Assembly (NCBI GenBank): GCA_903960135.1
Contig: CAJBZP010000068.1
Location: 1-63,209, forward strand
DNA from: an uncultured Actinomycetes bacterium
GTDB lineage: Bacteria > Actinomycetota > Actinomycetes > S36-B12
Direction: 5' to 3'
DNA length: 63,209 nucleotides
Shown in pieces: positions 23,997 to 62,724 of the stretch. Made by a program: the position numbers and the translations under genes. The notes under the pieces were generated by a model. That model saw only the letters and a program-made list of their open reading frames with translations, did no database searches and was not told the origin of the DNA. The first letter of the stretch is position 1. Each line of letters begins with the position of its first letter.

Positions 23997-24370
23997 CGGC
24001 GCCACATAGGTGGTCCGGCTTTCGGTGTGCGCTGCACGCCATGGCGTCCGAGCCAAACCCAGCAGCCCAACGACAGCAACACCAGTGAGAATCCGAAAAG
24101 CAGATCCTCGACCGGCGCGAAGGCGAGTCGGCCATCACCGATGAATGGAGGTGCACCGCCCTCTGGTGAAGTACCACCGATAATGGCGGCGCCGTCATAG
24201 CGAACGATTGCGAACCCCGTGAACATGCCGTTGGTTATCAGTTGAAAGAAAACGATGATCGCGTACGAGACCCAGAACACCTTGCGGGTCACCAATTTGG
24301 TACGCAGAAGGAACATATCGATTAAGACCGCCAGGATCACGGCGAGGCACCCAAGTTGCGTGTAAGTCAT
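23993..24370 (-). CDS. crtYd: lycopene cyclase, heterodimeric small subunit
   Basis: 125 aa with 3 TM helices. 4-nt overlap with the upstream half and with the crtB 3' end. Actinobacterial CrtYc/Yd arrangement. Confidence 0.75.
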   Translation of the reverse strand: MTYTQLGCLAVILAVLIDMFLLRTKLVTRKVFWVSYAIIVFFQLITNGMFTGFAIVRYDGAAIIGGTSPEGGAPPFIGDGRLAFAPVEDLLFGFSLVLLSLGCWVWLGRHGVQRTPKAGPPMWRR

Positions 24371-24729
24371 GGCGCGCCGTCCTCATCGCCGACCGCCCAC
24401 CCTTTGACCGATCGCACTGCCTCCAAGGTCAAAATCGAAGCGATCGGAATGACGATGAAGAACAGCACCTCATCAACTGGGACTGCGCCTGGCAAGTACC
24501 ACCCTGTTATGCGATCTTCATCAAACCACCAGTGGCCATTTGCAATTGCGTAAGCATCCCAACAAAAGAACATGATGACCGCCGGGACGATACTCAAGGC
24601 CAATCGTTTAGCCCGGCGAAATACCCGGGTGCGGCAAGTTGCTTCAAGCCAGGCACTACCTGCCAAGACGAAAATCAAGATCGCCACATATGACAAATTC
24701 GCGGGCACGGTCATATACTCTCCTAACAC
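24367..24729 (-). CDS. crtYc: lycopene cyclase, heterodimeric small subunit
   Basis: 120 aa with 3 TM helices. The PVDEVLFFIVIP motif is typical of lycopene cyclase domains. Confidence 0.75.
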   Translation of the reverse strand: MLGEYMTVPANLSYVAILIFVLAGSAWLEATCRTRVFRRAKRLALSIVPAVIMFFCWDAYAIANGHWWFDEDRITGWYLPGAVPVDEVLFFIVIPIASILTLEAVRSVKGWAVGDEDGAP

Positions 24730-24740
24730 AACTAAACATG

Positions 24741-24832
24741 CACGGGAGCTCCTGCCTAGTGGAGCTGAGAGGGCGACAGCACGGCGTCGCCGACCGTTCG
24801 AACCTGTCCGGGTAATGCCGGCGTAGGGAGGA
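24741..24832 (+). promoter_or_regulatory. TPP (THI-box) riboswitch
   Basis: Reads GGGAGCUCCUGCCUAGUGGAGCUGAGA-(GC hairpin GGGCGAC..GUCGCC)-GACCGUUCGAACCUGUCCGGGUAAUGCCGGCGUAGGGAGG. The hallmark CUGAGA, GAACCUG and GGUAAU..GCGUAGGGA blocks are all present. The 3' AGGGAGG is also the SD of the downstream ORF. Confidence 0.85.
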
Positions 24833-24834
24833 TT

Positions 24835-25443
24835 TTGGTGTCGATGTTCATGAACGTGGCCTTCAGTGCGTGGAACTATGACGTAACGGTGCTTGAGTTG
24901 CTGGCCGTGATTACCGCATTTATCGGAATCGGTCTGGCAATCCGCGGGACGCGGTGGGCGTGGCCGTTCTATTTCCTCTCAAGTGCCCTATATGGCTGGC
25001 TGCTCTGGGAGTACGCCCTCTACGGCACCGCGGCCCTGCAATTGGTTTTTATTGCCGCGGCAATCTGGGGTTGGTTCGGGTGGGGGCCGAAATCCATCAC
25101 CCCCACCACCGTCAGTAATCGAACCCGCCTGATCCTCCTGGCTGGCAGTCTCGCGGCCTGGCTCGCCTTGGTGCCCGTCCTCGCAGCAATCGGGGATCCA
25201 GCGCCGTGGCCCGATACTTTCGTCTTTGTCGGCAGTGTCGTCGCCCAGGTATTGATGGTCCGTGAGTACGCAGAGTCGTGGGTCCTTTGGATGGTCGTAA
25301 ATGTTGTGGGAGCCGCCCTTTACGCAACACAAAACCTCTGGTTCACCTCGTTGTTCTACGCGGCGCTAATTGTGCTGGCGGTGATTGGCCTGCGTAGCTG
25401 GCTAGCCAAGCGGGCACCGCTCCCGGGTTCGACTCACCTATGA
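24835..25443 (+). CDS. pnuC: PnuC-family transporter (predicted thiamine-specific PnuT type)
   Basis: 202 aa with about 7 TM helices. LYGWLLWEY...IWGWFGW Trp-rich PnuC signature. Controlled by the TPP riboswitch. Start is TTG 24835, GTG 24838 or ATG 24844. Confidence 0.8.
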   Translation: MVSMFMNVAFSAWNYDVTVLELLAVITAFIGIGLAIRGTRWAWPFYFLSSALYGWLLWEYALYGTAALQLVFIAAAIWGWFGWGPKSITPTTVSNRTRLILLAGSLAAWLALVPVLAAIGDPAPWPDTFVFVGSVVAQVLMVREYAESWVLWMVVNVVGAALYATQNLWFTSLFYAALIVLAVIGLRSWLAKRAPLPGSTHL

Positions 25444-25982
25444 GCGCGGCAGGTGGAACATCACGGAAAATTGGGCTGCTCGGCGGGGAATGCACCGGCA
25501 AGACCACTCTCGCCAAAGCTTTATGCGACCACCTTGATGCGGTCATCGTGCCGGAGTATCTTCGCGAGTTCGTCAGCACCACCGGGCGGGCGCCAACCGC
25601 CTTCGAGCAATCCAACATCATGACCACCCAAATTGCCGCGGAGAATGCCGCCTTAGTCGCCAGCCCGCATGCGCTCCTCGTGTGCGATCCCGCCGCCCTA
25701 ATGACCGCCATCTACAGCCTCGCCTACTTCGGCGATCGCTCGTTACTCGATTCCGCCGCCGTGCACGCCGCGACATACCGAACTCTTATTTGGTGTGGTA
25801 CCGACATCCCATGGGAACCTGATGGCAACCAACGGGACGGCCCGGAATACCGAGAACAGGTCGATGGCCTGATCGCCGAGGTGGTTGGCAGTGAGCTAGT
25901 GCCTGCCGGTATCCAAGTACACCGAATTGACGGCACAGTTGACGATCGGCTGCTGGCAGTCGTGAAGTTGCTGGAACACTAG
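25440..25982 (+). CDS. NadR ribosylnicotinamide-kinase-domain-like P-loop kinase
   Basis: 180 aa. Walker A LLGGECTGKTTLAKAL, then CDPAALMT and IPWEPDGNQRDG blocks paralleling the NadR RNK domain. ATGA overlap with pnuC. Confidence 0.65.
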   Translation: MSAAGGTSRKIGLLGGECTGKTTLAKALCDHLDAVIVPEYLREFVSTTGRAPTAFEQSNIMTTQIAAENAALVASPHALLVCDPAALMTAIYSLAYFGDRSLLDSAAVHAATYRTLIWCGTDIPWEPDGNQRDGPEYREQVDGLIAEVVGSELVPAGIQVHRIDGTVDDRLLAVVKLLEH

Positions 25983-61485: not shown

Positions 61486-62724
61486 GTGACCCTTGGGATG
61501 CCTGATTCTGCCGGGTGCGGAACAATAACCCTCGTGACCGGGTTACTGCACGAACCTCAGCCAACCCCACTGGCATTGCTGTTGCTCGGCCAAGATGCCG
61601 ACCCCGGGAGTGAACGGGGGGTTGAGTGCCCCGGCGCCTTGCCCGCCGCAAGTGACCCAGACCTCGTAGATCGGGCCGCCGCAGCCAAGGCCGAGCTGGG
61701 TGATCGGCTTTTTATCCTCGGCCACCACTACCAGCGTGGTGAGGTTATTGACTTCGCCGACGTCACCGGTGACTCATTCAAGCTTGCCCAGCAAGCCGCG
61801 GCACACCCAGCAGCCGAGTTCATCGTTTTTTGTGGTGTGCACTTCATGGCCGAAAGTGCCGATATTCTCACCGCTGACAACCAGCAGGTGATACTGCCTG
61901 ATCTTGCCGCTGGCTGCTCAATGGCCGACATGGCAAATATCGCGCAAGTTGAGCACTGCTGGGAAGAGTTAGAGCAGGCCGGTATCGCTGAAGTCACGAT
62001 CCCAATAACTTACATGAATTCCACCGCAGCCATCAAGGCATTTACCGGCCGGCACGGGGGCGCCGTCTGCACTTCGAGTAATGCCGAGCGCAGTATGCGT
62101 TGGGCCTTCGAACAGGGCGAAAAAGTGCTTTTTCTGCCCGACCAGCACCTTGGGCGAAATACCGCGGTGCGCGAACTCGGGCTCGAGCTAACCGACTGCG
62201 TGGTTTTTGATCCACGCAAGCCACTCGGCGGCCGCACCGCCGATCAGTTGCGCGATGCGAAAGTCATCCTCTGGAAAGGCCATTGTTCAGTGCACGGACG
62301 CTTCACCGCCGATTGCGTAGACGATGTCCGTGAACGTATCCCAGGTGTCACGGTTATCGTCCATCCAGAGTGCACCTACGAGGTCGTCACCAAGGCCGAT
62401 GTTGTCGGCTCAACAGAAAAGATCATCGCCACCATCGCCGCGGCTCCTCCTGGGAGCGCATGGGCCATTGGTACCGAATTGAATCTAGTAAAACGCCTTG
62501 CCCAAAACCACCCCGACAAGACAATTGCCTACCTGGATAAGTCGGTGTGCTTCTGCTCGACGATGAACCGCATTGACCTACCGCACCTCGTTTGGGTTCT
62601 TGAGTCGTTGGTCGCCGGGACCGTGGTCAACCAAATCGAGGTCGATCCCGAAACCGCCAAGTGGGCCAAGGTCTCACTCGACCGCATGCTTGCCCTCCCG
62701 GGGCCAGATGCCAAAGCCGACTAG
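61486..62724 (+). CDS. nadA: quinolinate synthase
   Basis: 412 aa. ILGHHYQR and VFCGVHFMAESADIL motifs, plus conserved Cys ligands. The exact start is uncertain. Confidence 0.9.
   Translation: MTLGMPDSAGCGTITLVTGLLHEPQPTPLALLLLGQDADPGSERGVECPGALPAASDPDLVDRAAAAKAELGDRLFILGHHYQRGEVIDFADVTGDSFKLAQQAAAHPAAEFIVFCGVHFMAESADILTADNQQVILPDLAAGCSMADMANIAQVEHCWEELEQAGIAEVTIPITYMNSTAAIKAFTGRHGGAVCTSSNAERSMRWAFEQGEKVLFLPDQHLGRNTAVRELGLELTDCVVFDPRKPLGGRTADQLRDAKVILWKGHCSVHGRFTADCVDDVRERIPGVTVIVHPECTYEVVTKADVVGSTEKIIATIAAAPPGSAWAIGTELNLVKRLAQNHPDKTIAYLDKSVCFCSTMNRIDLPHLVWVLESLVAGTVVNQIEVDPETAKWAKVSLDRMLALPGPDAKAD

Follow-up and report, generated by a model that had tools for sequence, protein, structure and literature searches.

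A PnuT-type transporter gene preceded by a TPP riboswitch overlaps the gene for a candidate thiamine kinase in an uncultured actinobacterium

In lakes and oceans, thiamine is among the micronutrients in limiting supply, and actinobacteria of the Nanopelagicales type, which are among the most abundant freshwater bacteria, are thiamine auxotrophs. To our knowledge, published reconstructions of their thiamine metabolism end at the transporter and leave unexplained how thiamine becomes thiamine pyrophosphate (TPP) without thiamine pyrophosphokinase (TPK) or ThiK. Which enzyme, then, phosphorylates the thiamine that is taken up? The question is raised by a locus in a 63,209-nucleotide stretch of DNA from an uncultured Actinomycetes bacterium (lineage S36-B12; assembly GCA_903960135.1, contig CAJBZP010000068.1), referred to here as the window. 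In this locus a TPP riboswitch precedes a gene for a PnuT-type transporter, and the end of that gene overlaps the start of a gene for a 180-residue P-loop protein resembling the kinase domain of NadR. Neither the riboswitch nor the PnuT-type transporter is unusual, both being already known for this group. The analysis reported here makes it fairly likely, from sequence comparisons, that the coupled 180-residue protein is a thiamine kinase of a new type, which would trap imported thiamine as thiamine monophosphate (TMP).

The need for such an enzyme follows from what the host genome (2.33 Mb in 152 contigs, 95.5% complete) contains. ThiL is present (253.9 bits), while TPK, ThiC, ThiE, and ThiM were not found in this genome, which yielded a weak Phos_pyr_kin match only. 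ThiK was not found in it either, the sole match of the ThiK model being a protein of the aminoglycoside phosphotransferase (APH) family that scored 30 bits against a cut-off of 206. For the order to which the organism belongs, the same sample of 151 genomes was used in every search. ThiC was found in 0/151 genomes, TPK above its cut-off in 0/151, ThiE in 8/151, and ThiL in 145/151; a TPP riboswitch was present in 130/150, nearly always exactly one per genome. Purified PnuT binds thiamine and neither TMP nor TPP (PMC5749112). A cell that depends on PnuT and retains ThiL would therefore require a thiamine-to-TMP kinase, and since the known TMP-making enzymes were not found, this kinase would be outside the known types.

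The 180-residue protein (P0002) consists of a kinase domain only, without a nicotinamide mononucleotide (NMN) adenylyltransferase domain, and matches the AAA_28 family (Table 1). The solved structures closest to its AlphaFold model (predicted local distance difference test score of 92.7) in a Foldseek search were the NadR kinase domains 8x7f (TM-score, 0.78; 21% identity) and 1lw7 (TM-score, 0.70), followed by deoxynucleoside and thymidylate kinases. In an alignment of the family, designated A1, residues G15, E17, G20, K21, E39, R42, D83, W125, and R132-D133-G134-P135 are invariant. The conserved motifs of A1, namely, GGE(C/S)(T/S)GK(T/S), ExxRE, the Walker B aspartate, and a lid W-x-x-D-G-x-Q-R-D-G-P, follow one another in the order seen in NadR kinase domains. 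As judged by sequence and predicted structure, the protein is a distant relative of the NadR kinase domain. Its scores were far below the NadR equivalog cut-offs (50 bits versus 341 and 22 versus 201; models TIGR01526 and NF005988), and NCBIfam and Pfam scans gave no match to ThiK (NF007620) or TPK (TIGR01378). A preliminary description of the locus, made from the sequence alone, had assigned it a NadR kinase-like fold rather than a ThiN/TPK or ThiK type, and these comparisons agree. An action as pyrophosphokinase was judged less likely, since ThiL is retained throughout the order.

A1 homologues are proteins of about 180 residues from metagenome-assembled genomes (MAGs) of freshwater Actinomycetota, named "ATP-binding protein" or, automatically, "nicotinamide riboside kinase." Longer members (e.g., P0247, with 368 residues) contain no second Pfam domain; the 190-residue N-terminal extension of P0247, which has no Pfam match, may reflect either a gene called too long in high-GC DNA or an additional, fused domain. 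Comparison with the NadR active site gave no inference about the substrate: the published contacts of NadR with nicotinamide riboside (NR) are docking based and centered on the Walker motifs (PMC13256911), and the Lactococcus lactis structures contain no substrate in the kinase site.

The transporter gene is the sole Pnu gene found in the host genome, and two features suggest that its product belongs to the PnuT subgroup: its linkage to a THI element, which serves as the working criterion of thiamine specificity short of a transport assay, and, in transmembrane segment 6, the WxxW(x)3D/N motif (defined in PMC5749112), present here as W149-V-L-W152-M-V-V-N156 (P0001 numbering). The window PnuT shares 54% identity along its entire length with the TPP-linked PnuT of the sister family. 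Its similarity to the solved NR transporter 4QTN is low (36 bits) and does not discriminate; the riboswitch-less Pnu protein of locus L125 is equally distant. The pnuT stop codon and the kinase start codon share an ATGA, and no GGAGG-like site lies in the 20 nt upstream of 25440. The earlier proposals of a PnuT-type transporter under a THI box and of translational coupling through an ATGA overlap were thus both upheld, the latter as a reading of the sequence. One freshwater metatranscriptome contained a single 151-nt contig within pnuT (25222-25372) and three other runs contained none, which is uninformative on cotranscription or regulation.

The 105-nt spacer from the end of a lycopene-cyclase open reading frame (ORF) at 24729 to the longest pnu ORF (TTG at 24835) contains all of the THI-box hallmarks previously attributed to it: P3 hairpin strands AGCUCC/GGAGCU (24747-24752 and 24761-24766), CUGAGA (24765-24770), GAACCUG (24800-24806), and GGGUAAUGCCGGCGUAGGGA (24810-24829). 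The Rfam TPP model, which had been suggested as a check, matched above its gathering score; this was the only Rfam match in the window and the only TPP riboswitch found in the host genome. The same element lies upstream of pnuT in 16 related loci, among which a P3 pair shows a compensatory change from CG to GC in 6/16 leaders and the P5 stem varies between clades in a compensatory manner (CCGG/CCGG versus ACAG/CUGU, GCAG/CUGC, and GCGG/CCGC). P1 is weak in the window aptamer, with 3/5 pairs in the Rfam alignment. The minimum free energy fold of the single leader sequence was no better than those of shuffled sequences (z = 0.61), and the RNAalifold consensus of the leaders recovered P2 and P3 and not P4 and P5. 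A pairing of the Shine-Dalgarno sequence with early codons in that consensus was distrusted, as these columns are constrained by coding.

The Shine-Dalgarno sequence AGGGAGG is followed by in-frame start codons at 24835 (TTG), 24838 (GTG), 24844 (ATG), and 24850 (ATG), as the preliminary description had reported for the cluster at 24835-24846, with one refinement. Because GGGAGG is invariant across the 16 aligned leaders and a start codon follows 6 to 7 nt downstream in each clade, GTG 24838 rather than TTG 24835 is the likely start of pnuT. The column of GTG 24838 is ATG in close relatives, and a more distant clade starts at the ATG column equivalent to 24850. A scan of the leader found no terminator-like hairpin between the aptamer and the pnu ORF, which fits translational control, and control by the riboswitch is probably translational. 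Since AGGGAGG lies within P4, the junction, and P1, the ligand-stabilized fold would occlude the ribosome-binding site, and sequestration of this site upon TPP binding is predicted.

Table 1. Features of the locus in the window and of related loci
Feature	Coordinates	Strand	Basis or remark
TPP riboswitch aptamer (THI element)	24732-24846	+	RF00059, 66.9 bits vs gathering score 54.3, E 5.6e-11, full model 1-105
Shine-Dalgarno AGGGAGG	24825-24831	+	Covers end of P4 3' strand, GA junction, and first bases of P1 3' strand (Rfam structure line)
pnuT, Pnu-family facilitator, about 201 aa	24838-25443	+	Longest ORF 24835-25443 vs PF04973: 6.9e-41, 140.6 bits vs cut-off 27.3
ATGA overlap, pnuT stop/kinase start	25440-25443	+	Read from sequence; predicted translational coupling
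Candidate thiamine kinase, stand-alone P-loop, NadR kinase-like (AAA_28), 180 aa	25440-25982	+	PF13521, 3e-23, 83.3 bits vs 27
Walker A/P-loop GGECTGKT, residues 15-22	25482-25505	+	Translation; family-invariant; aligns with NadR kinase-domain P-loop
Promoter-like site ATGACA, 18 nt, TATACT	24690-24719	+	Consensus scan, 10/12 matches; pattern match only
Lycopene-cyclase ORF	24367-24729	-	Divergent from pnu ORF
NadA, quinolinate synthase	61687-62694	+	334 bits
A2 member after TPP-riboswitch pnuT	L112:1529-2131	+	f7
A2 member after TPP-riboswitch pnuT	L111:3402-3962	-	f7
A2 member after TPP-riboswitch pnuT	L113:1506-2108	+	f7
g34 TPP-regulated ThiY operon	L117:1859-3613 (G116:C20)	-	Also L118 (G096:C27)

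The promoter-like site listed in Table 1 extends into the 5' part of the lycopene-cyclase ORF on the opposite strand and is placed for a transcription start just before the aptamer. Carotenoid genes lie upstream of the locus, and a gene for a Ser/Thr kinase with four PASTA domains lies downstream.

Across the order, the genes that the riboswitch controls differ between lineages. (Families are labeled f, with f1 the organism's own taxonomic family and f7 the small acI-type genomes; genera are labeled g, with g1 the genus of the window.) The riboswitch precedes pnuT in g1, part of f4 and f5, and nearly all of f7. It precedes genes for a ThiBPQ-like binding protein, permease, and ATPase in most of f1, g25 of f4, f5, and g20 of f10; a YkoE-type component in g26 of f10; and a ThiY/NMT1-type binding protein in g34 of f10. 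Wherever a sampled genome contains A1 as well as a pnu gene (18/18, from coordinates tabulated by hand), A1 is the next gene after pnu and has the same orientation. In 28/28 f7 genomes with pnuT, the next gene encodes a P-loop protein of a second family, A2. A P-loop kinase gene thus stands directly behind the riboswitch-type pnuT in 46/46 cases in the order sample (18 A1 and 28 A2).

A2 proteins have about 200 residues, match AAA_18 and, weakly, PRK/dNK, and are named "uridine kinase" by the Joint Genome Institute (JGI); A2 and A1 have only 28 P-loop columns in common. As judged by sequence, the pnuT genes that accompany A1 and A2 are orthologous and the kinases are not. A1, Pnu, and A2 were found, respectively, in 32/32, 2/32, and 3/32 genomes of f1 (the A2 matches there being weak, at 47 to 68 bits); in 19/32, 12/32, and 0/32 of f4; in 4/16, 3/16, and 10/16 of f5; in 0/32, 28/32, and 29/32 of f7; and in 0/32, 2/32, and 30/32 of f10. 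A2 also occurs in g34, between the ThiY-like gene and the permease gene of a TPP-regulated ATP-binding cassette (ABC) operon, a gene order that connects A2 with thiamine a second time and independently. From these associations, A2 is itself a candidate thiamine kinase, and the existence of a second family raises the plausibility that A1 is one. The TPP matches before pnuT in f7 scored 29 to 42 bits, far under the gathering score (e.g., G199:C23:13086-13198 and G100:C6:36148-36261), as would be expected if the whole lineage had a variant aptamer. Binding proteins of the ThiY type are usually associated with uptake of a pyrimidine precursor; in the g34 genomes, which have no ThiE, the ThiY-type system may import thiamine itself.

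The distribution of the two families largely follows the status of ThiE, by which salvaged precursors can be joined into TMP. A1 and A2 hardly ever occur in the same genome; 126/143 (88%) ThiE-negative genomes carry A1 or A2, and 7/8 ThiE-positive genomes carry neither. Within g24, the ThiE-negative genome G075 has PnuT and A2, while the ThiE-positive genomes G070 and G167 have neither kinase; in g15, pnuT and A1 occur together in one genome and A2 occurs in five. Genera g13, g16, g18, and g31 are wholly ThiE positive. The within-genus switches and the four ThiE-positive genera are separate contrasts that point in the same direction. No statistic is attached to the pattern, because related genomes are not independent samples.

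Locus neighborhoods, compared by targeted inspection, and a kinase tree bear on the history of the association. The PnuT-linked kinases from actinobacteria, 17 in number, group in a single clade of the tree (SH-aLRT support, 87), and only two changes of the linkage label are needed. In these comparisons, riboswitch, pnuT, and kinase travel together as a stable module. The arrangement recurs in L123, from a third lineage with 70% GC, where a variant TPP element (29 bits; E = 5e-4 locally) precedes a PnuT that is 53% identical and a kinase that is 37% identical to those of the window. Loci from MAGs labeled "Bifidobacterium breve" (L007, L009, L029, L031, L032, and L039) and "Rubrivirga" or Rubricoccaceae (L053, L058, L059, L070, L071, L079, and L081) probably carry wrong public labels, because they show the carotenoid-kinase-pknB synteny of freshwater actinobacteria and their kinases are nested among those of Nanopelagicales in the tree.

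Several observations weigh against a thiamine kinase. A Pnu gene stands beside the A1 kinase gene in only 18/80 reference-genome loci, the kinase gene elsewhere standing alone in carotenoid-to-pknB synteny, and 35/50 genomes with an unlinked kinase have no Pnu gene. In 30/32 f1 genomes, the kinase gene occupies the carotenoid-to-pknB locus away from pnuT and the riboswitch, and the riboswitch runs a ThiBPQ-like ABC importer elsewhere. Linkage to pnuT appears from the tree to have arisen few times (in one actinobacterial clade), and the linked genomes are therefore not independent. The ThiE pattern has exceptions as well: G103, a ThiE-positive MAG (530 contigs, 4% contamination), carries pnuT and the kinase, and 17 ThiE-negative genomes have neither A1 nor A2, mostly in g25, where this holds for 12/13 genomes. 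The ABC importer of g25 might conceivably take up TMP or TPP. In G072 of g25, a 199-residue PQ-loop/MtN3 (SWEET-like) membrane protein is encoded divergently beside the TPP riboswitch and ThiBPQ-like operon (L109:50-649, minus strand).

A further point against thiamine lies outside the order. No TPP riboswitch was found near the Betaproteobacterial and L125 pnu-kinase pairs; the Pnu proteins of these pairs are only 32 to 34% identical to PnuT, and the kinases of the Betaproteobacterial and other riboswitch-less pairs are about 40 to 45% identical to the window kinase. From these distant pairs, the wider A1 family may include real NR kinases or enzymes of other specificities. In L125:294-1912 and L126:3710-4669, from probable Proteobacteria, the kinase gene follows ftsB/divIC (eno in L126). 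The Pnu gene intervenes in L125 and not in L126; the kinase keeps its locus and the transporter comes and goes, as in the actinobacteria.

These observations bear most directly on the possibility that the 180-residue protein is a stand-alone NR kinase for NAD salvage or recycling, an old resident of its locus to which riboswitch and pnuT are merely upstream. The sequence and fold of the protein are indeed nearest to NadR kinase domains, its nearest solved relatives are real NR kinases, many homologues are automatically named as such by JGI, and both the solitary kinase genes of most same-family genomes and the Betaproteobacterial pairs without a TPP riboswitch fit this explanation. We nevertheless regard it as unlikely. 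The protein is no more than about 20% identical to genuine NR kinase domains, the kinase gene is coupled to a TPP-controlled transporter gene and adjacent to it in every sampled genome that has both, and the host genome contains no other Pnu transporter for NR import. NadA is encoded in the window and also found in 19/21 relatives; the host thus probably makes NAD de novo, and NR salvage is not required. An Rfam scan found no NAD riboswitch in the window, and the context of the kinase gene, with TPP riboswitch control and NadA present, is not NAD related. Nor would an NR kinase have any reason to exclude the kinase family of other TPP operons or to be absent from ThiE-positive genomes.

The specificities of Pnu proteins and P-loop kinases cannot be read from sequence, and the kinase might act on another compound entering through the transporter, such as a precursor or degradation product of thiamine (thiazole alcohol, hydroxymethylpyrimidine, or a thiamine analogue) or an unrelated nucleoside. 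Shewanella PnuT also binds thiamine analogues (PMC5749112), and A2 occurs in a ThiY-type operon. Such a substrate seems even less probable than NR: without ThiE, ThiM, and ThiC, phosphorylated precursors cannot become TMP in the host genome, the retained ThiL needs TMP, and the ThiE-positive genomes, which could use precursors, contain neither kinase family in 7/8 cases. Least probable, in our estimate, is that another enzyme phosphorylates thiamine and that the P-loop protein is an ATPase that regulates or gates PnuT. The weak ThiK-model match noted above (G000:C82:16352-17029, minus strand) is a conceivable alternative thiamine kinase, and the ThiE-negative genomes without A1 or A2 manage by some other means; but the APH protein scores far under the ThiK cut-off, the P-loop protein keeps the full set of NadR-type kinase motifs (Walker A, ExxRE, Walker B, and the lid W-x-x-DG-x-R), and in liposomes PnuT acts as a facilitator without a partner (PMC5749112).

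The preliminary description had proposed, by analogy with PnuC and NadR, that the protein may phosphorylate thiamine or a thiamine precursor, and the genomic comparisons support its idea of a new thiamine kinase. Under this favored explanation, the two genes would form an operon for thiamine uptake and trapping, regulated by the TPP riboswitch. At low TPP, the aptamer would be unliganded and AGGGAGG free; PnuT would be translated and the kinase cotranslated through the ATGA overlap. Thiamine would diffuse in through PnuT, and the 180-residue kinase would phosphorylate its hydroxyethyl group with ATP. Thiamine as the substrate and TMP as the product are predicted from the genomic context. The TMP, with no exit via PnuT, would be trapped and converted by ThiL to TPP. 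When TPP is abundant, the bound aptamer would hold the P4 and P1 strands with the ribosome-binding site paired, and both genes would be off. The kinase, a diverged relative of the NadR NR-kinase domain, would have been recruited to another cationic heterocycle with a primary alcohol.

Several known systems come close to this scheme. In pnuT-tnr3 operons such as that of Bacteroides thetaiotaomicron (PMC5613172; for PnuT of Shewanella woodyi, see PMC5749112), a TPP riboswitch likewise controls a Pnu thiamine facilitator and a cotranscribed kinase that acts as the vitamin trap. There, however, the kinase is a TPK of the Tnr3/ThiN type that makes TPP in one step, whereas the P-loop, NadR kinase-like protein described here would make TMP, and ThiL would be needed. 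Uptake and trapping of NR by PnuC and NadR in Haemophilus, Salmonella, and Lactococcus (PMC7221760) also pair a Pnu transporter with a kinase of the same fold and with a shared motif order (GGExxGK(S/T), ExxRE, Walker B, and W-x-x-DG-x-R). Unlike NadR, to which it is about 20% identical, the window kinase stands alone, without an NMN adenylyltransferase or helix-turn-helix domain, and is under TPP riboswitch control in a NadA-bearing thiamine auxotroph. The proposed chemistry, from thiamine to TMP to TPP, is that of enterobacterial ThiK (YcfN) and ThiL, but ThiK has an APH/protein kinase-like fold, whereas the fold of the window kinase is of the P-loop, nucleoside monophosphate kinase-like type, with no ThiK match. 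The THI-element pnuC gene (predicted PnuT) of acI freshwater Actinobacteria was described with no mention of a kinase (Kang et al. 2017, PMC5301498). Those bacteria belong to the same order and share the riboswitch-transporter pair and thiamine auxotrophy; in the small acI genomes of f7, the gene after pnuT encodes a Udk-like rather than a NadR-like P-loop kinase. The PnuT trapping model was published with TPK or ThiK as the kinase (PMC5749112), and a literature search, whose coverage left out many subscription journals, found no paper that ties an AAA_28/NadR-like or Udk-like kinase to thiamine; a Polynucleobacter paper contained "pnuC" in locus tags only.

On the broader question, we lean, if only slightly, toward A1 and A2 together being the missing thiamine kinases of the dominant freshwater actinobacteria, displacing each other behind the same riboswitch and orthologous PnuT; this would explain why ThiL is retained in these auxotrophs. 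If A1 and A2 are thiamine kinases, a gap in vitamin B1 metabolism would be closed. Thousands of database entries, at present annotated as "nicotinamide riboside kinase," "uridine kinase," or "ATP-binding protein," would receive corrected names, and predictions of auxotrophy from metagenomes would improve. The locus would also illustrate clearly how a transporter and the kinase that traps its substrate can shift jointly from vitamin B3 to vitamin B1.

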